Part shown: positions 10,199-32,244 of the stretch, piece by piece
Numbering within the stretch: position 1 is the first letter of the stretch
Layout of the letters: each line of letters begins with the position of its first letter
IMG/VR virus record: IMGVR_UViG_3300037743_000151
Span: 1-64,000 of that record
DNA length: 64,000 bases
Strand: one strand, 5' to 3'
DNA from: a virus
Position numbers and translations under genes: made by a program
Notes under the pieces: generated by a model
Database searches by the model: none
What the model was told of the DNA's origin: nothing
The model's input: the letters and a program-made list of their open reading frames with translations, nothing else

Positions 10199-10399
10199 AT
10201 GACCGGCACCACCACCCGCGGCGACGCCCGCATCCGCCTCCGCGAACACGCCGCCCACCTCTACATCGAAGGCTGCACCATCGCGAGCACCGCCCGCCAG
10301 ATCGGCCGCTCCTACGGCTGCACCCGCACCCTCCTCCTCGAAGCCGGCGTCCGGCTCCGCAAGCCCGGCGGGCACCGCGGCACCACCTTCCGCAAGTAA
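10199..10399 (+). CDS. small helix-turn-helix DNA-binding protein
   Basis: ATG after CAGGAAG RBS; 66 aa. CTIASTARQIGRSYGCTRTLLLEAG looks like an HTH. Confidence 0.55.
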   Translation: MTGTTTRGDARIRLREHAAHLYIEGCTIASTARQIGRSYGCTRTLLLEAGVRLRKPGGHRGTTFRK

Positions 10400-11247: not shown

Positions 11248-12033
11248 GTGACCGACATCGTGCAGGCACCGAACACCGAGGAAGCCCGAGCCCGAGCCGA
11301 CCGCATCCGCTCCGGCATGCGCGTCCTCGCCGCGTGGCAGCAAGACGTAATCGCCGCCTACGCCGCCCGCGACTGGGACACCCTCGGCTACGAGACATGG
11401 GACGCGTACATCGACGGCGAGTACGGCGAGCACCGCGTACGACTCCCGCGCGAGCAGCGCCGCGAGATCGTCGCCGGGATGTCCGCCGCGGGCATGTCCA
11501 CCCGAGCTATCGGGGCCGCAGTCGGTGTCCACCACGACACCGTGAACCGCGACGTTCAGGCGACTGTCGGAAATACGACAGACGACCAGCCGCGCACGGT
11601 GCTGTCCCTCGACGGTCGCGAGCGCCCGGCCACCCGTCCTGCGGTCGACGAGAACGTATGGATCGAGCCCGGCACGGACGAGGTGGTCGACGCCGAACTC
11701 GTCGACGAGCCCGCGCGCGCCGAGCCCTCCAGGCCGAAGCGTCGCCCCTTCCCCGAGGCGTTCACTGACGCCTCCCATGACCTCGCCCGCATCGCGGAAC
11801 GCCTCGACCGCCTGCGCGACGACGACCGGTTCACCCGCAACCGGCACCAGACCCACCACAGGGCCTCCGACATCGTCCGAGCCCTGGACTCCGTCACCCA
11901 ACTCGCCGTCGACATGGACCTGTCCACGGCTGAGACAAGCGAAGAGGCCCGCCGCTGGTGGGCGACGAGCCTCCACAAAATCTCCGACGCCCTGCGCGAC
12001 GTCGCCAACTCCCTCGAACAGGAGCACTCATGA
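11248..12033 (+). CDS. helix-turn-helix DNA-binding protein
   Basis: GTG 11248 after GAAAGGAGG RBS. The segment GMSTRAIGAAVGVHHDTVNRDV is HTH-like. Confidence 0.6.
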   Translation: MTDIVQAPNTEEARARADRIRSGMRVLAAWQQDVIAAYAARDWDTLGYETWDAYIDGEYGEHRVRLPREQRREIVAGMSAAGMSTRAIGAAVGVHHDTVNRDVQATVGNTTDDQPRTVLSLDGRERPATRPAVDENVWIEPGTDEVVDAELVDEPARAEPSRPKRRPFPEAFTDASHDLARIAERLDRLRDDDRFTRNRHQTHHRASDIVRALDSVTQLAVDMDLSTAETSEEARRWWATSLHKISDALRDVANSLEQEHS

Positions 12034-26139: not shown

Positions 26140-26181
26140 ACGAAGGCCGCCAGACTTTCCCCCCCATCTGGTGGCCTTCGT
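26140..26181. terminator. hairpin terminator (13-14 bp stem) between convergent operons
   Basis: ACGAAGGCCGCCAG pairs with CTGGTGGCCTTCGT (one G-U pair). Confidence 0.55.
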
Positions 26182-26188
26182 CATTCCC

Positions 26189-26212
26189 GCCCCGCTCGAT
26201 TCCGGGCGGGGC
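26189..26212. terminator. second GC hairpin
   Basis: GCCCCGC (26189-26195) pairs with GCGGGGC (26206-26212). Lies 6 nt beyond the stop of the reverse operon. Confidence 0.45.
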
Positions 26213-26676: not shown

Positions 26677-27200
26677 GCGGTGGGCTCCTTGCTGGCCTTC
26701 GGGTCGATCAGGTCGGCGACGCCGCCGTGTTCCCCGCAACAGCCGATGCCGGTGCAATAGTCGTCGCGGCCGGACGCCCGCTGCTTCTCGGCCAGCTCGT
26801 GCGCGTAGTCGTCGAGCGCGTCACCGAACGCCGACGCTGTGTCGGGGTGCTGGTACAGATGCCACAGCCTGTCACGCGCGCTCATCCGCTCATGCTCCTC
26901 GCTACTCACCGGGCGCTCGCGCAGTGCGGCCACCTCAACCCGCAGGTCGTGGATCACCGTGACGAACTGCTCGGTCGTGTGCGTGGCCAAGTGCTCTCGC
27001 GCTGCGGCATCCGTCTGCCGCGCCTCCGTGAGGTAAGCCTGGCGAGCAAACGAGGTCACGTCGTTGACGTCCAGGGCAGCCGGGTCGATGGCGGCGCCCA
27101 GCTCGGCGAGCCGCTCAAGGCTGACTGGTGGGACGTCGTGGTGCCAGCAGCATTCGAGGGGGCACAGGTAGCGGGTCGTACCCGGGACGGTCTCGCTCAT
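26673..27200 (-). CDS. hypothetical Cys-rich protein
   Basis: ATG 27200 (AAGGAG RBS, ATGA overlap); 175 aa; CPLECCWHH and CTGIGCCGEHGG motifs. Confidence 0.55.
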   Translation of the reverse strand: MSETVPGTTRYLCPLECCWHHDVPPVSLERLAELGAAIDPAALDVNDVTSFARQAYLTEARQTDAAAREHLATHTTEQFVTVIHDLRVEVAALRERPVSSEEHERMSARDRLWHLYQHPDTASAFGDALDDYAHELAEKQRASGRDDYCTGIGCCGEHGGVADLIDPKASKEPTA

Positions 27201-27487
27201 CGGGTCTCCTTCTCGCCCGGACGCGCCGCACCCGCGCCGACGGTCGGGTACAGGTCGGGGAAGGCGAAGCACGCGTCGGCCACCAGAGCCATGACCGCCG
27301 AGTCCTTCGGGCATCCCTCCTCCCGGTCACGCATGAGGCCCTGGACGTAGCCCATGACGGCCGCGTCGTGGAAGAGGCCGCGTTCCCGGTCGGTGAGGCT
27401 GGTTAGGAAGGCGTCGACAGCGGTGGCTCGTTCGGCGTCCCGCGCTGCCAGGTAGGTGATCAGGGGGCCGAGCACGGTCTCGCTCAT
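27197..27487 (-). CDS. hypothetical protein
   Basis: ATG 27487 (AAGGAGA RBS, ATGA overlap); 96 aa. Confidence 0.55.
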   Translation of the reverse strand: MSETVLGPLITYLAARDAERATAVDAFLTSLTDRERGLFHDAAVMGYVQGLMRDREEGCPKDSAVMALVADACFAFPDLYPTVGAGAARPGEKETR

Positions 27488-27672
27488 GGGGTGTTCTCCT
27501 TGCTGCTTACCTCCCACGAGAAGCGGATCACGACCGCGCCGTCCGATCGTCGTTCCATTCGGGTTTCAAGTCTTCCGATAGTGAAGGCGTCGTGCTCTTC
27601 CGCCAGGGTGAGCGCCTCGCCGTGGGCGTGGTCCAGGTCTTCCCGCAGCTTCTTCTGTGCTCTCGCGCTCAT
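27484..27672 (-). CDS. hypothetical protein
   Basis: ATG 27672 (GAGGGG RBS, ATGA overlap); 62 aa. Confidence 0.5.
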   Translation of the reverse strand: MSARAQKKLREDLDHAHGEALTLAEEHDAFTIGRLETRMERRSDGAVVIRFSWEVSSKENTP

Positions 27673-27926
27673 GCGGTCTGCCCCTCGCTGCCCACCGGGG
27701 GCTGGTGGGCAAGCACCGCACTCAGGACCGCATCGGCCAACTCGTAGATGCTCACCTGGCCGTCATACTCCGGCTCGCTCGCCCAGGGCTGCGGCGGCAT
27801 CACGCCAGGCATCTGCGCACCCCAGTCCGCTGCGTCCAGTCGTGTGCGGATGGCGTCGGCGATGTCCTGGCGCAGGCGCTCGTGGGGGTCGATCGTGCCG
27901 TCGGCGCGTCGTACTGGCTCGATCAT
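27669..27926 (-). CDS. hypothetical protein
   Basis: ATG 27926 (GAGGAG RBS, ATGA overlap); 85 aa. Confidence 0.5.
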   Translation of the reverse strand: MIEPVRRADGTIDPHERLRQDIADAIRTRLDAADWGAQMPGVMPPQPWASEPEYDGQVSIYELADAVLSAVLAHQPPVGSEGQTA

Positions 27927-28381
27927 CCGCTCGTCTCCTCGCTGCCCACCGGGCGCTCCTCGGGGGACAGGTCGAACCCCGTCGCCTCCCTCAGCCGCGC
28001 CTGCTCCTTCTCCAGCCACGCGTCCATACGCTCGGGCGCCACGTCGTCCCTGACGCTGAAGTCCCCGGCAGGCTCGGTGAACACCGGGCTGGCCGGGCGC
28101 CTGAACTCCGACGGGTCCATGTCGGCGAGGAGCAGCAGGCGTTCCCGGCTCCGCTTGTCCCGCTCCCACCCGTCGAGACCCGCGCTCACGATCTCGTTCA
28201 GCACCCGCTCCGCCGAGTCGTACGGGATGCCCTCGCGCTGCATGGCGGCCTCCATCGCGGCGAGCATGCCGCGCGTCCGCTCGATGTCGTTGTGCATGGT
28301 CGGGTCGTGGTGGTAGGCGTGACGTGCGCCGGGGCGACGCCTGATCTGATCGTCGATGATCCGGTCCGTGAACTCGCTCAT
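27923..28381 (-). CDS. hypothetical protein
   Basis: ATG 28381 (GAGGAG RBS, ATGA overlap); 152 aa. Confidence 0.55.
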   Translation of the reverse strand: MSEFTDRIIDDQIRRRPGARHAYHHDPTMHNDIERTRGMLAAMEAAMQREGIPYDSAERVLNEIVSAGLDGWERDKRSRERLLLLADMDPSEFRRPASPVFTEPAGDFSVRDDVAPERMDAWLEKEQARLREATGFDLSPEERPVGSEETSG

Positions 28382-28968
28382 GCGGTCTGCTCCTCGCTGG
28401 CGGCCGGGCGCTCCGGGGCGGTCGTCTTGCGAAGCCGATCGGCGCGGTCCTTGTAACGCGCGTCCGGCTCGATGCGCTGGGCGGGGACCAGGATCCGATG
28501 GGGTCCGAAGCGACGGTTCAGCTCCCCCCACCGCAGATCGGCGCTGCGGTACCCCGCCATGTGCCGCCACTTCTCACCTTCCCGACGCCAGCGCCGACGG
28601 TTCGGCATGACGGTCACCTCGGTCCCGACGGGAGGCTCAGGCTTGATCTCTGGGCTCAGCCCCTGCTCCGCGAGCGACCTGCGCCACCAGGGGTCACTCA
28701 TGTACGCATCGAACTCCGGGCTGAAAGACGGCGACACCGTGATGTTGGTGTTGCACGGGGTACAGAGCAAGCCACGCACCGCCCACTGCCCCACCGTCGC
28801 GTCGTGGTCAACCACCAAGAAGCCGTGCTTCGTGTCTTGCGGAACCGCGCGACAGATCTGGCATCGGCCTTCGGCATGGGCCAGGAGGCGGTCGTACTCT
28901 GCGCAGTCCATCTGGTACACGCGATGGCTGCATGGGCTCTTGGGCGGCTTGATGTGGTTCATCGTCAT
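28378..28968 (-). CDS. endonuclease VII-family (HNH-type) nuclease
   Basis: GRCQICRAVPQDTKHGFLVVDHDATVGQWAVRGLLCTPCNTNI matches the Endonuclease_7 signature (C.IC...L.VDHDH.TG.VRGLLC..CN). ATGA overlap. Confidence 0.7.
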   Translation of the reverse strand: MTMNHIKPPKSPCSHRVYQMDCAEYDRLLAHAEGRCQICRAVPQDTKHGFLVVDHDATVGQWAVRGLLCTPCNTNITVSPSFSPEFDAYMSDPWWRRSLAEQGLSPEIKPEPPVGTEVTVMPNRRRWRREGEKWRHMAGYRSADLRWGELNRRFGPHRILVPAQRIEPDARYKDRADRLRKTTAPERPAASEEQTA

Positions 28969-29225
28969 CCCAATTCCTGCTCGGCGCGGACTTTGCGTGC
29001 GGCCTCGACGACTTCTCGGTCCGGCCTGTCCGGCAGCTTGGCGCCGGGCTCGCGGATGTACCAGTCGATCAGCTGCCGGATCACGGCGGCGCGCTCGGTG
29101 CCCATGGCCTTGGCGGCGGCGTCGAAGTCGTACCAGGTGTCGCCAATGCGGATCTGGCGGGCGGGGGTCTTCGGCACGTTGGGCGACATGCGCCGACTGT
29201 ATTCGGGTGTAGCTACCTGCGTCAT
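28965..29225 (-). CDS. ribbon-helix-helix (CopG/Arc-like) transcriptional regulator
   Basis: RQIRIGDTWYDFDAAAKAMGTERAAVIRQLIDWYI fits a beta-strand/helix/helix RHH pattern. It is the first gene of the reverse operon. Its 5' end overlaps operator copy 1 (alternative start 29189). Confidence 0.6.
   Translation of the reverse strand: MTQVATPEYSRRMSPNVPKTPARQIRIGDTWYDFDAAAKAMGTERAAVIRQLIDWYIREPGAKLPDRPDREVVEAARKVRAEQELG
29206..29219. promoter_or_regulatory. operator copy 1 (GGTGTAGCTACCTG, 12/14)
   Basis: Imperfect copy of the palindrome GGTGTAGCTACACC. Confidence 0.6.
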
Positions 29226-29239
29226 CTCTGGGCCTCTCT

Positions 29240-29253
29240 GGTGTAGCTACAGA
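29240..29253. promoter_or_regulatory. operator copy 2 (GGTGTAGCTACAGA, 12/14)
   Basis: Lies 34 bp from copy 1. Confidence 0.6.
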
Positions 29254-29273
29254 ATCTCGGTCGAAGTGCTTGC

Positions 29274-29287
29274 GGTGTAGCTACACC
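29274..29287. promoter_or_regulatory. operator copy 3 (GGTGTAGCTACACC, perfect 14-bp palindrome)
   Basis: Lies 34 bp from copy 2. Confidence 0.7.
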
Positions 29288-29296
29288 CAACTGTAC

Positions 29297-29310
29297 GGTG
29301 TAGCTACACC
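29297..29310. promoter_or_regulatory. operator copy 4 (GGTGTAGCTACACC, perfect 14-bp palindrome)
   Basis: Lies 23 bp from copy 3 and 35 nt upstream of ATG 29345. Confidence 0.7.
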
Positions 29311-29344
29311 CCAAGCAAGGGGTCGAACCACCGAGGGGACCCCG

Positions 29345-29728
29345 ATGACTGCCGCCACCCGCACCCGCCGCAACACCCTCCGCACCGCCACCCGCACCAA
29401 CCGCGCCCTCGGCTACCGCACCCTCTCCGGCCACATCGCCGCGCTCGTCGACCAGGGCAAGCTGATTCGCACCAGCACCTTCCTCGACCGCATCGGCGGT
29501 GGCGACCTCCCCGACGGCCAGCAGTCCTGGTACGGCCGCCACGCCAAGAAGGCCTACAAGGCACAGCACGGCGCCGACCCCGTCCGCGTCTGGGCGCAGC
29601 ACCGCACCACCGGACGCTGGATCCACGTCCACGTCTACGGCCCCATCGACGAAGCCCTGTACGCCGGCCTCCGCTCCTACAAGGCCACCCGCCACCTCCT
29701 CGCCTCCTCGTACACGGAGGCCGCCTAG
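29345..29728 (+). CDS. hypothetical basic protein
   Basis: ATG 29345 after GAGGGGA RBS; 127 aa. First gene transcribed rightward from the operator region. Confidence 0.55.
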   Translation: MTAATRTRRNTLRTATRTNRALGYRTLSGHIAALVDQGKLIRTSTFLDRIGGGDLPDGQQSWYGRHAKKAYKAQHGADPVRVWAQHRTTGRWIHVHVYGPIDEALYAGLRSYKATRHLLASSYTEAA

Positions 29729-29782
29729 ACCAACTCCACGACGCAGCAGACGACTCAGATCGCCCCCTCCGAAAGGCCCGCC

Positions 29783-30226
29783 ATGCGCTTCCAGACCTGC
29801 CGCCGCCACCCCAAGTCTGCCCCCTTCATGGCCACCTGCTCCGGCTGCGCCCAGGAGCTGTACGACATCGAGCAGGCCAACCGCGCCCGCGCCGAAGCCG
29901 GACGCATCGCCAAGGTCGCCCATGCCCTGGGGTTCCGCAACGGCTGGAAGCCGGACCCCCGCCTCGGCGAGACCGCCACCAGCCTCACCACGTGGTCCCA
30001 GCACGAGCTGAACGACCTGTACGAGCACGTCGGCGGCACGGTCACCGCCCGCGTCGTGCAGCGCACCGGCTCCGACTCGACCTGGCAGGCCACCGAGATC
30101 ACCCTCACCGTCGACGTGCCCGGCGTCGGCCCGGTGACGGTCTCCACCGACTGGTACGAGGAGTACGGCGGCCGCGACCTGCCGCTGATGCAGGCCATCC
30201 CCGACGTCGAGCTGATCGCCGCCTGA
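29783..30226 (+). CDS. hypothetical protein
   Basis: ATG after GAAAGG; 147 aa. The start context GAAAGGCCCGCCATGC is repeated at 30353. Confidence 0.55.
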   Translation: MRFQTCRRHPKSAPFMATCSGCAQELYDIEQANRARAEAGRIAKVAHALGFRNGWKPDPRLGETATSLTTWSQHELNDLYEHVGGTVTARVVQRTGSDSTWQATEITLTVDVPGVGPVTVSTDWYEEYGGRDLPLMQAIPDVELIAA

Positions 30227-30239
30227 TCCATGCAGCAGA

Positions 30240-30266
30240 AGGCCCCGGTCCACCGAGCCGGGGCCT
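30240..30266 (+). terminator. GC hairpin terminator
   Basis: AGGCCCCGG (30240-30248) pairs with CCGGGGCCT (30258-30266). Confidence 0.5.
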
Positions 30267-30352
30267 CACCACCGTCCTCTACCCCGTCGATCTCCCCATC
30301 GCCGCCCGCGTCCAGCTCCTCGCCGACGCGCTCGCTGCTTGAAAGGCCCGCC

Positions 30353-30541
30353 ATGCTCACCCAGACCACCGCGCTGCCCACCGCTCCCGCCAAGCTGGCC
30401 GACCTGCTCCTCGCCCCCACCGCCGACACCAACGCCCTTCACCGGCAGCTTGCCGACCAGATCGGCGGCCGGCCCGCCCGCCAGATCCTGGCCGCCGCCC
30501 ACCAAATCGCAGCCGACCGACTGTGGAACGCAACCGCCTGA
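30353..30541 (+). CDS. hypothetical protein (62 aa)
   Basis: ATG 30353 in the 30230..30541 ORF after GAAAGG. Confidence 0.45.
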   Translation: MLTQTTALPTAPAKLADLLLAPTADTNALHRQLADQIGGRPARQILAAAHQIAADRLWNATA

Positions 30542-30551
30542 CCCCGCTCTA

Positions 30552-30580
30552 CTGGGGCCGTCGACCCGTCGCGGCCCCAG
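30552..30580 (+). terminator. GC hairpin terminator
   Basis: CTGGGGCCG (30552-30560) pairs with CGGCCCCAG (30572-30580). Confidence 0.5.
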
Positions 30581-30601
30581 CCTCGAACAAGGGAGAAACC
30601 C

Positions 30602-30874
30602 ATGTACCGCATCGCCATCGTCCGCAAAGGCCAGGCCGCAGACCGCCGCACCTGCGACGGCCGCGGCGAACTCCGCGACATCGTCTGGGAAGTCATCCGC
30701 GCCGAAGGCAGCACCATCACCGACGCCGACCATGGTCCGCTCATGCAGCTCATCGGCAACGCCCGCAACCTCGCGGACAACGAGGGGTTCGCCGCACTGG
30801 AGTTCGGGACCACCGGGATTACCATCCGTCCCGGCCCGATTCCCGCGCCGACGGTCCCCGGCGGCGGATTCTAA
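30602..30874 (+). CDS. hypothetical protein
   Basis: ATG after AGGGAGA RBS; 90 aa. Confidence 0.55.
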   Translation: MYRIAIVRKGQAADRRTCDGRGELRDIVWEVIRAEGSTITDADHGPLMQLIGNARNLADNEGFAALEFGTTGITIRPGPIPAPTVPGGGF

Positions 30875-30917
30875 CCAGCCGCACCCACCACCCGCCCGAC
30901 CACCAAGGAGAACCCGT

Positions 30918-31808
30918 ATGGGACGCGAAATCCGCCGAGTACCCCTCACCTTCGATTGGCCCCTCAACAAGGTCTGGGAGGGCTTCCTCAGCCCCGCCTC
31001 CCTCGACGGGGAAAAGTGCCCCGACTGCGAGGACGGCTACTCACCCCAAGCCGACAACCTGCACGCCCTCTGGTACGGACACATTCCCTTCGACCCCACC
31101 AGCACCGGATCCACCCCGTGGCGCGCCGACACCCCGGCAATCCGGGCCCGAGCCGAACGCAACGTGGCCGACGCCCCGGACTACTACGGAAGCGGAGAGG
31201 GTGCCATCGCCCGCGAGGCGCAGCGGCTGGCCGACCACTTCAACAGCGGATGGCTACACCACATCTCTCAAGACGACGTTGACGCGCTCATCGCGGCCGG
31301 GCGACTCCACGACTTCACCCACACGTGGACCCGCGAGGACGGCTGGCAGCCCGAGGACCCGCCCGTCACGCCCACCGCCGCCCAGGTCAACGAATGGTCC
31401 CTGTCCGGCTTCGGCCACGACGCCATCAACGCGAGCGTTGCGGTCAGCGCCCGCTGCGAGCGTGAGGGCGTCAACCCGACCTGCCAGACCTGCGACGGCC
31501 ACGCCACAATCGAGGCTTACCCCGGCCAGCGCGCCGACGCCGAAGCATGGGAGCCCACCGACCCGCCCGCAGGTGACGGCTGGCAGCTGTGGGAGACCGT
31601 GTCCGAGGGCTCCCCGGTCAGCCCCGTGTTCGCCACCGCCGACGAGCTGGCCGCGTGGATGTCCGACCCGGAGCGCGGCGACCGCTGGGTCCCGGCTGCC
31701 GTGGCCGCGAATTTCATCGCCGACGGCTGGGCGCCAAGCTTTGTAGGAACCGCCAGTGCAGGTTTCGTGTCGGGTGTCGAGTGGGTCGGCACCCAAGACG
31801 ACGCCTGA
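30918..31808 (+). CDS. hypothetical protein
   Basis: ATG 30918 after AAGGAGA RBS; 296 aa; CPDCEDG and CQTCDGH zinc-like motifs. Confidence 0.6.
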   Translation: MGREIRRVPLTFDWPLNKVWEGFLSPASLDGEKCPDCEDGYSPQADNLHALWYGHIPFDPTSTGSTPWRADTPAIRARAERNVADAPDYYGSGEGAIAREAQRLADHFNSGWLHHISQDDVDALIAAGRLHDFTHTWTREDGWQPEDPPVTPTAAQVNEWSLSGFGHDAINASVAVSARCEREGVNPTCQTCDGHATIEAYPGQRADAEAWEPTDPPAGDGWQLWETVSEGSPVSPVFATADELAAWMSDPERGDRWVPAAVAANFIADGWAPSFVGTASAGFVSGVEWVGTQDDA

Positions 31809-31854
31809 CCCCGCCGTACGCTCGAACCGCCACCACGCAACCAGGAGAACCCGC

Positions 31855-32244
31855 ATGACCGACACCCGCTCATTCGCCCTCGCCGACGTCCTCTCCATCA
31901 CCACCCCCGCCCTACTCTCCCGCCGCGGCATGGACGGACTCGGCGACCTCCTCAACTACATGACCGGCGACACCCTCAAGACATGGCAGTTCCTCCGCGC
32001 CGCCGACGAATGCACCGCCGCCCTCTGCGCCCAACACCCCTTCCTCGCCGACCTCCAGCCCCCGCAGGGCCTCGACAAGCCGGACCTCTACGCGTGGCTC
32101 GTCGAAGCCGAACGCACCCACGGCGGCCTGATCCGGGTGACGCCACTCGCCGACTGGCAGCACCAGGACCCGAGCACCGAGCTCCTCGACCGGATCCACC
32201 TCGCGCGACTGCGCACCACCGAGTCCGAGCCGCCGCAGGACTGA
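31855..32244 (+). CDS. hypothetical protein
   Basis: ATG 31855 after CAGGAGA RBS; 129 aa. Confidence 0.55.
   Translation: MTDTRSFALADVLSITTPALLSRRGMDGLGDLLNYMTGDTLKTWQFLRAADECTAALCAQHPFLADLQPPQGLDKPDLYAWLVEAERTHGGLIRVTPLADWQHQDPSTELLDRIHLARLRTTESEPPQD

Follow-up and report, generated by a model that had tools for sequence, protein, structure and literature searches.

The immI region of phage P22 encodes the ribbon-helix-helix (RHH) repressors Arc and Mnt, which act on the ant and mnt promoters. Plasmids also carry RHH repressors that act at multiple sites, such as CopG of pMV158, omega of pSM19035 and ParG of TP228, and proteins of this fold serve as centromere binders (ParG, omega) and antitoxins as well. 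Reg576 of pLS20 is a further multi-site plasmid repressor of this type (PMC6294495), and the P22 'ant moron' is mosaic and variable between related phages (PMC2629481). In Escherichia coli, acrA and acrR share a compact, pseudo-symmetrical two-direction promoter at which the locally encoded AcrR damps its own gene and the divergent operon; in bacterial bidirectional promoters the two start points can lie 10, 18 or 23 bp apart, 23 bp being one of the common classes (PMC12825309). Here we describe a locus with likenesses to each of these systems in the virus genome of IMG/VR record IMGVR_UViG_3300037743_000151. The whole record is 71,979 bp long, and its first 64 kb are the stretch of DNA that we analysed (the window). 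A gap between two divergent genes, together with the first codons of one of them, holds four copies of a 14-bp palindrome (O1 to O4, Table 1). That gene encodes an 86-amino acid (aa) protein, which we consider likely to be a local auto-repressor that closes a bidirectional promoter both ways via two identical, symmetrically placed operators.

All four copies share the exact 11-mer GGTGTAGCTAC, on the plus strand, within 29206-29310. On reading the sequence, the copies at 29274-29287 and 29297-29310 are both perfect, as an earlier sequence-only reading of this DNA had stated; of the two further copies that it had scored as 12/14, the one at 29240-29253 does match at 12 positions, but the one at 29206-29219 matches at 11. 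Remeasurement agreed with its centre-to-centre distances of 34, 34 and 23 bp and with its gap of 119 bp, from the reverse ATG (29225) to the forward ATG (29345). For the 8-mer core GTAGCTAC, 0.08 copies are expected in the window and 4 are present, a number reached by 0 of 100 shuffles, and the 11-mer gives 6 strand-matches against 0.27 expected. Throughout the 72-kb phage the core is confined to the array, and a genome-wide pattern search likewise found the 11-mer at this locus alone, which extends to the whole genome the earlier remark that the motif was not seen in the other intergenic regions then read. In five whole Streptomyces genomes of 7.4-9.3 Mb, the 12-mer GTGTAGCTACAC is confined to the cassette formed by the sites and the small gene, which excludes a host regulon motif. 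The motif is real, clustered and not spread through coding DNA.

Relatives of the locus were gathered by scanning IMG/VR and GTDB genomes with the protein and the 14-mer as queries. This gave 30 distinct loci, the window counted among them, whose homologues are 36-93% identical. In all 30, the array lies beside a homologue of the 86-aa gene, and its sites keep constant distances from the start codon of that gene (-78/-55/-21/+13 or close variants). Two palindromes, perfect or nearly so, are present in every locus at a spacing of 23 bp (range 18-24). About two thirds of the loci have a third site with its centre near -21 or -33, usually flanked by the same imperfect 'TC'; a short-leader subgroup (L131, L132, L079, L106, L103 and L019) lacks it. 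The site centred at +13, within codons 3-7, is present in 28/28 loci with a readable gene and start. Related loci also conserve the gradation from perfect to imperfect sites. All loci that the motif scan returned with at least three copies in about 110 bp encode an adjoining homologue. The surroundings of the array are mosaic: the first divergent (rightward) gene comes from no fewer than eight unrelated families, the repressor gene is followed by different genes in different loci (by endonuclease VII in the window and L126 only), and five relatives have no homologous portal protein. Because the small gene alone stays constant among these mosaic flanks, the neighbouring genes are excluded as binders, and because gene and sites persist while the flanking genes vary, the small protein is the likely binder. 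The sequence-only reading had taken the sites for operators of the adjacent RHH-type gene, and this view gains from both the joint travel of gene and array in about 30 loci with changing surroundings and the membership of the gene in a PHROG family named 'Arc-like repressor'. The sites are thus probably operators of the adjacent 86-aa protein and, judged from these comparisons, gene, sites and promoter are one portable cassette, evidently exchanged among unrelated Streptomyces prophages. A viral contig returned by the motif scan, L091, has two pairs of GTAGCTAC cores, each with a spacing of 22 bp, at 10219-10241 and 11562-11584, with 1.3 kb between the pairs; no repressor homologue was detected near them in the stretch fetched.

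The copy that the sequence-only reading had seen in the first codons of the reverse gene, O4, is located in codons 3-7, where it reads CAG GTA GCT ACA CC. In this phage, the shares of GTA, GCT and ACA within their codon families are 4.3%, 8.7% and 4.8%, and the joint chance of the three is 1.8e-4. Across 27 loci, codon 4 is GTA in 27/27, codon 5 is GCT in 27/27 and codon 6 is ACA in 25/27. Residues 2-3 appear in 13 different forms across loci, and residues 8-12 vary too. Rare and near-invariant codons amid variable residues indicate that the DNA is conserved and not the peptide, and this codon comparison shows selection on the DNA of codons 4-6.

The 119-bp gap is predicted to hold a pair of host-type promoters that overlap and point in opposite directions: P_L, which faces the repressor gene, and P_R, which faces the rightward gene (Table 1; start points were predicted 7 nt past each -10 hexamer). 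In an alignment of nine gaps the operators are invariant, and outside them so are TTG at 29270-29272, A...TA at 29290-29295 and the minus-strand TTG at 29318-29316. By pattern search, TTGnnn-N17/18(19)-TAnnnT is present at the position of P_L in 25/30 loci, the inner three bases of the -10 being free to vary (TACAGT, TAGACT, TAGAGT, TAAACT, TAGCGT and others). TTGCGG-N18-TAnGGT is present at the position of P_R in 28/30 loci, 26 of them with the 18-nt spacer. In L129, L131, L132, L059 and L139, the operators are spaced 18-21 bp apart, yet the P_R spacer is still 18 nt long owing to compensating indels; that it is kept despite the changed operator spacing points to selection on the promoter itself. 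The -10 hexamers TACAGT (minus strand) and TACGGT (plus strand) share TA, and the predicted start points are 23 bp apart, as are the perfect palindromes. O1 covers positions -9 to +5 of P_R and the spacer (-14 to -27) of P_L, and O2 covers -4 to +10 of P_L and the spacer (-32 to -19) of P_R. At the sequence level, the gap therefore has the features of a bidirectional promoter, namely overlapping opposite -10 hexamers, -35 hexamers at 17/18 nt and start points at one of the described separations. The imperfect flank of O3 is itself conserved, as nAnTCT immediately 5' of GTAGC in the direction of the gene (29254-29260 and relatives), and there may be a second, weaker leftward promoter with O2 as its -35 region. 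The ATTCT-GTAG arrangement seen at O3 also forms the -10 of a promoter adjoining a second Arc-like gene of this phage.

The 86-aa protein is probably RHH-like. It matches phrog_6506, 'Arc-like repressor', at E 7.7e-6, and this PHROG matches 28/28 aligned family members (best E 1.7e-7). An AlphaFold2 (AF2) model of the monomer, with a predicted local distance difference test (pLDDT) score of 66, has a strand at residues 24-27, helical segments at 34-39 and 44-58, and an additional helix at 70-85; the order of elements in this moderate-confidence model fits an RHH fold, in which strand-helix-helix subunits intertwine as a dimer around a two-stranded antiparallel sheet. One family member matches Pfam ParG weakly (E 0.18). 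We found 96 homologues, all from Streptomyces or metagenomes; wherever a database names one, the name is 'hypothetical protein', except for one UniRef label, 'CopG family'. Among 50,697 GenBank phage records, tblastn with the repressor found no relative and megablast with 27000-33000 no match. Literature searches returned no paper on the protein family and no relevant paper on the motif, for which the sole 12-mer match was an unrelated condensin paper.

The protein has a 22-residue N-terminal arm and a conserved tail, WY-x-x-EPGAKLPDRP (residues 55-68, just past the second helix; 28965-29060), which is the most conserved part of the family. This stretch is kept in L135 and L136 despite their different operators and is absent from the second family member described below; it may be a protein-contact or turnover signal. 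Many database entries begin the protein at an invariant Met13. We favour the upstream start, because it has a conserved ribosome-binding site 6-8 nt 5' whether its codon is ATG, GTG or TTG, and because the reading frame upstream of Met13 is open and in frame in all loci, the only indel being one whole codon. In Streptomyces sp. SID8352 (L134 2741-3190, L147 3741-4190), a GIY-YIG-like domain apparently continues in frame, at its C-terminus, into an RHH-like domain that is 63% identical over residues 23-84, and the operator array is absent. The window's own genome encodes a GIY-YIG plus helix-turn-helix protein at 69314-69949.

Diverged family members adjoin altered sites, which are GGTGTATTACACC in L135, TGTAGCCACA in L136 and GTATTAC in L154. 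The genome of the phage itself encodes a second, distant member of the family near the integrase (Table 1). Its own 122-bp divergent gap (67162-67283) has two copies of TGTAGGTACA, which is found nowhere else in the genome, and one copy overlaps a consensus-like promoter, TTGACA-N17-CATTCT, facing a 295-aa gene at 67284. This second member also touches three further Arc-like PHROGs and weakly matches a PHROG named 'partition protein ATPase'. Gordonia phages GMA1 and BritBrat encode relatives of it, and in them too the gene is near the integrase. The locus L138 (3971-4284) was grouped with this second gene and its divergent gap. A common theme of all these sites is TGTA..TACA half-sites with a variable centre. 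A code linking residue and base (strand position 24 against the operator centre) was considered and dropped, as L059, L093 and L032 differ in strand residues and have the same site.

The arrangement suggests how such a cassette would work. The 86-aa protein would bind O1 and O2, and bound protein would keep RNA polymerase off both promoters jointly; since each perfect site covers the start of one promoter and the -35/-10 spacer of the other, both promoters should be shut together. In this way the repressor would hold down both its own production (autorepression) and the rightward operon. The cassette may act in the lysogen, in a Mnt-like role of maintenance or immunity, or in lytic growth, as an Arc-like shut-off. 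The weaker O3 and O4, in the leader and in codons 3-7, would probably contribute cooperative binding or a roadblock, so that the repressor's own operon would be damped further as the protein accumulates. We infer the binding of the sites by the protein, the start points, the direction of the effect (repression) and the number of dimers per site.

Several results weigh against this picture. With regard to the fold, the Pfam scan of all 28 family members returned nothing significant and the NCBIfam scan of the same 28 no match; a PDB sequence/profile search and a Foldseek search with the AF2 monomer model both gave no match, and hhalign against a hand-entered Arc sequence gave nothing. The confidence of the monomer model (pLDDT 66) is moderate. 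As Pfam, NCBIfam, PDB, Foldseek and hhalign gave no confirmation, the fold assignment rests on the PHROG match. With regard to the DNA, a promoter scan with the E. coli consensus calls neither promoter in the gap, part of the conservation of P_R is forced because its hexamers overlap the operators (-35 GG, -10 GGT), and no simple residue-to-base code connects the strand residues with the operator variants.

The ends of the record overlap by 127 bp, which indicates a circular assembly, and the G+C content of the window is about 69%. Siphovirus-type terminase, portal, capsid and tape-measure genes are at 39.7-59.6 kb. A tyrosine integrase gene (68424-69335, minus strand) lies outside the window; with the second Arc-like gene, a WhiB-like gene and helix-turn-helix genes it is part of a region at 65.8-71 kb, 36-41 kb from the cassette. 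Homologues of the 86-aa gene are found in prophages of many Streptomyces genomes, and the relatives are integrated prophages within large chromosomal contigs. The integrase and these Streptomyces prophage homologues identify the phage as a temperate Streptomyces phage.

Each of the two operons that leave the gap is about 3 kb long, and the hairpins that bracket them, found by direct search (program terminator calls were uninformative), have no T-tracts. With these boundaries, 26.1-32.3 kb is a self-contained and putatively insulated operon pair in the middle of the genome. P_R was considered as the head of the whole late region (terminase and structural genes); P_R is co-directional with the terminase gene here, but the idea is weakened by the hairpin at 32259-32288, which probably ends the operon at about 3 kb, and by two relatives: in G003 the terminase gene is on the same strand about 2.6 kb downstream, and in G004 it is convergent. 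The 127-aa protein encoded first in the rightward operon has 729 homologues; among the 120 listed nearly all are 127 aa long and every name is 'hypothetical'. It has no Pfam or PHROG match, and its AF2 model (pLDDT 71) has no significant fold match. The 127-aa gene is the first after a putatively repressed promoter in several phages, with differing repressor/operator cassettes (window, L136, L150, L152 and L154). The repressors before it are the RHH type described here, an RHH variant, the second Arc-like type, a 72-aa protein with GAGTAGGCCTACTC and a 206-aa protein, an exchange that resembles the swapping of immunity specificities. Searched products of both operons gave no match to an antirepressor family in Pfam or PHROGs; most are without assigned function, and a novel antirepressor may be among them. 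A C-terminal ...ERP-x-SSEE-x-T-x recurs in several small proteins of these operons that are otherwise unrelated (28378-28968, neighbouring leftward genes, L152 and L154). This tail apparently encodes the ribosome-binding site of the next gene (GGAGGA), with an ATGA overlap, and translational coupling seems to shape the protein ends in these operons.

Table 1. Features of the cassette, the operons that leave it and the second family member. Positions are those of the window unless marked as genome.
Feature	Position	Strand	Details
O1	29297-29310		Perfect 14-bp palindrome GGTGTAGCTACACC; perfect in nearly all related loci
O2	29274-29287		Perfect 14-bp palindrome GGTGTAGCTACACC; O1-O2 spacing 23 bp in most loci, range 18-24
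O3	29240-29253		12/14 copy GGTGTAGCTACAGA (TCTGTAGCTACACC in the direction of the gene); in the repressor mRNA leader, centre 21 bp before the start codon
O4	29206-29219		11/14 copy GGTGTAGCTACCTG (CAGGTAGCTACACC in the direction of the gene); codons 3-7 (Q V A T P), centre +13
P_L, predicted	29290-29318	-	-35 TTGCTT 29318-29313, 17-nt spacer, -10 TACAGT 29295-29290; start about 29283
P_R, predicted	29270-29299	+	-35 TTGCGG 29270-29275, 18-nt spacer, -10 TACGGT 29294-29299; start about 29306
Probable repressor gene, first of the leftward operon	28965-29225	-	86 aa; ribosome-binding site GAGAGG 29233-29238
Leftward operon, eight genes	29225 to 26218	-	Repressor, endonuclease VII/HNH (28378-28968), six small genes (boundaries partly checked)
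GC-rich hairpins after the leftward operon	26140-26212		
Rightward operon, about six genes	29345-32244	+	Last gene carries DUF7736
First gene of the rightward operon	29345-29728	+	127 aa; arginine-rich N-terminus; ribosome-binding site GAGGGGA 29333-29339
Remainder of the rightward operon, about five genes	29783-32288 (hairpin included)	+	
Hairpin ending the rightward operon	32259-32288		11 bp, perfect, GC-rich
Second, distant family member	genome 66970-67161	-	63 aa, near the integrase; phrog_6506 E 3.6e-15; hhalign against the family alignment E 8e-4

The sequence-only reading had likened the locus to the bidirectional Arc/Mnt switch of P22 and called it a central switch of the phage. In its fullest form this would be a toggle of the immI kind, in which graded occupancy flips the direction of transcription and the locus is the central decision point between lysis and lysogeny. 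Overlapping divergent promoters do let RNA polymerase occupy one of them at a time, a competition that has been described (PMC12825309), and it is on the repressor side alone that the sites vary in quality. The different repressor/operator cassettes that other phages have before the same 127-aa gene are also what would be expected of immunity-type determinants. The P22 comparison nevertheless does not carry over, as there is one regulator here and not two, no antirepressor is recognisable downstream, and the two strongest sites are identical and symmetrical over both promoters, a geometry that predicts joint repression. The one other family member in the phage is 38 kb distant and has different sites of its own. 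The central role is conjectural: the integrase and the other regulators lie 36-41 kb away, and both operons end at hairpins after about 3 kb. We consider the toggle unlikely.

Joint repression by the 86-aa protein also has to be set against the idea that something else uses the sites. They could be bound by a host regulator, the 127-aa product or the endonuclease VII/HNH protein, or belong to a replication origin, a partition centromere or a toxin-antitoxin operator. The RHH fold does include centromere binders and antitoxins, and the weak ParG match of one member and the weak 'partition protein ATPase' match of the second member point the same way. Against a host regulator, the motif is absent from the remainder of the five host genomes. 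The 127-aa gene and the motif are separable, the gene being present without the motif in L136, L150, L152 and L154 and the motif without the gene in most loci, and only the window and L126 have the endonuclease gene after that of the repressor. Type Ib partition systems have an adjacent ParA/ParF-type ATPase, but no ParA-type or Rep gene was recognised beside the cassette among the searched operon products; a toxin-antitoxin system has a conserved downstream toxin gene, but here the downstream gene differs between loci. Taken as a group, these roles are very improbable. A role at the level of RNA, with O3 and O4 pairing in the leader to enclose the ribosome-binding site and start codon and control translation, is the remotest of the explanations that we weighed. 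The minimum-energy fold of the predicted leader does pair O3 with O4 around the start codon, but its z-score is -0.05 and 95/200 shuffles are at least as stable; moreover, O1 and most of O2 are outside the transcript, and O3 is absent in six related loci.

Joint repression could have a wider meaning, and we raise as a tentative and rather doubtful idea that the cassette is an immunity determinant that can be swapped within a large group of temperate Streptomyces phages. If so, the protein would be made in the lysogen and would silence a hairpin-insulated 6-kb operon pair, one half of which is headed by a very widespread 127-aa gene, and superinfecting relatives with the same sites would be blocked. 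At least four other repressor/operator specificities would then be exchanged before the same gene. The operator in codons 3-7 and the strictly conserved EPGAKLPDRP tail would serve purposes that no studied RHH repressor explains, in the case of the tail perhaps docking or degradation signalling.

Irrespective of immunity, the comparison provides about 100 small proteins in Streptomyces prophages, of which all but one are 'hypothetical' wherever a database names them, with a likely function, site and promoter logic, and it shows that curated libraries (Pfam, NCBIfam) miss the 86-aa protein family. The cassette is compact, with about 120 bp of control DNA and a 261-bp gene. As its site is absent elsewhere in five Streptomyces genomes, it would be a natural orthogonal repressor/two-way-promoter part for Streptomyces engineering, for which several alternative specificities are ready-made. 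The 6-kb unit of about 14 genes is marked as one putatively co-regulated block, and offers an entry point to the effects of prophages on their hosts.

Among the described systems, P22 immI shares with this locus a small phage repressor (here a probable one, from an Arc-like PHROG family), palindromic operators over divergent, overlapping promoters, a repressor gene that is first in one of two operons and probably represses itself, and a region that is mosaic between related phages. The locus differs from it in having one regulator and one kind of site, whereas P22 has two repressors, for maintenance and for lytic shut-off, with separate operators, and in its four sites, where P22 has one for each protein. 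Neither an antirepressor gene nor a sar-like antisense RNA was recognised here, and hhalign detected no sequence similarity to Arc. The host is a high-GC actinobacterium and the promoters are of the host type (TTGnnn/TAnnnT); moreover, one operator lies within codons 3-7 of the repressor. E. coli acrA/acrR is alike in its single bidirectional promoter with a locally encoded auto-repressor and in the 23-bp class of start separation, but AcrR is a helix-turn-helix protein of the TetR family, and here there are two identical symmetrical operators plus two downstream sites, with starts that are predicted. The plasmid RHH repressors, which are dimeric, resemble the 86-aa protein in being small, in acting on several short repeats around their own promoter and in autoregulation; the action and the autoregulation are predicted here. 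They use contiguous repeats of 7-13 bp or a looped pair of sites, unlike the 14-bp palindromes 23/34 bp apart found here; at this locus, moreover, no linked replication or partition genes were recognised and no sequence similarity passed thresholds.

Within phrog_6506 (e.g., gp32 of Gordonia phage BritBrat), the likeness is a profile match by the window protein and 28 relatives; the window protein is a distant member, with an N-terminal arm and a tail that the second member lacks. The type of system is well known, an RHH auto-repressor acting on palindromic operators being a textbook arrangement. The uncommon details of this locus are an operator in codons 3-7 and an operator spacing that is exactly the 23-bp geometry of a bidirectional promoter.

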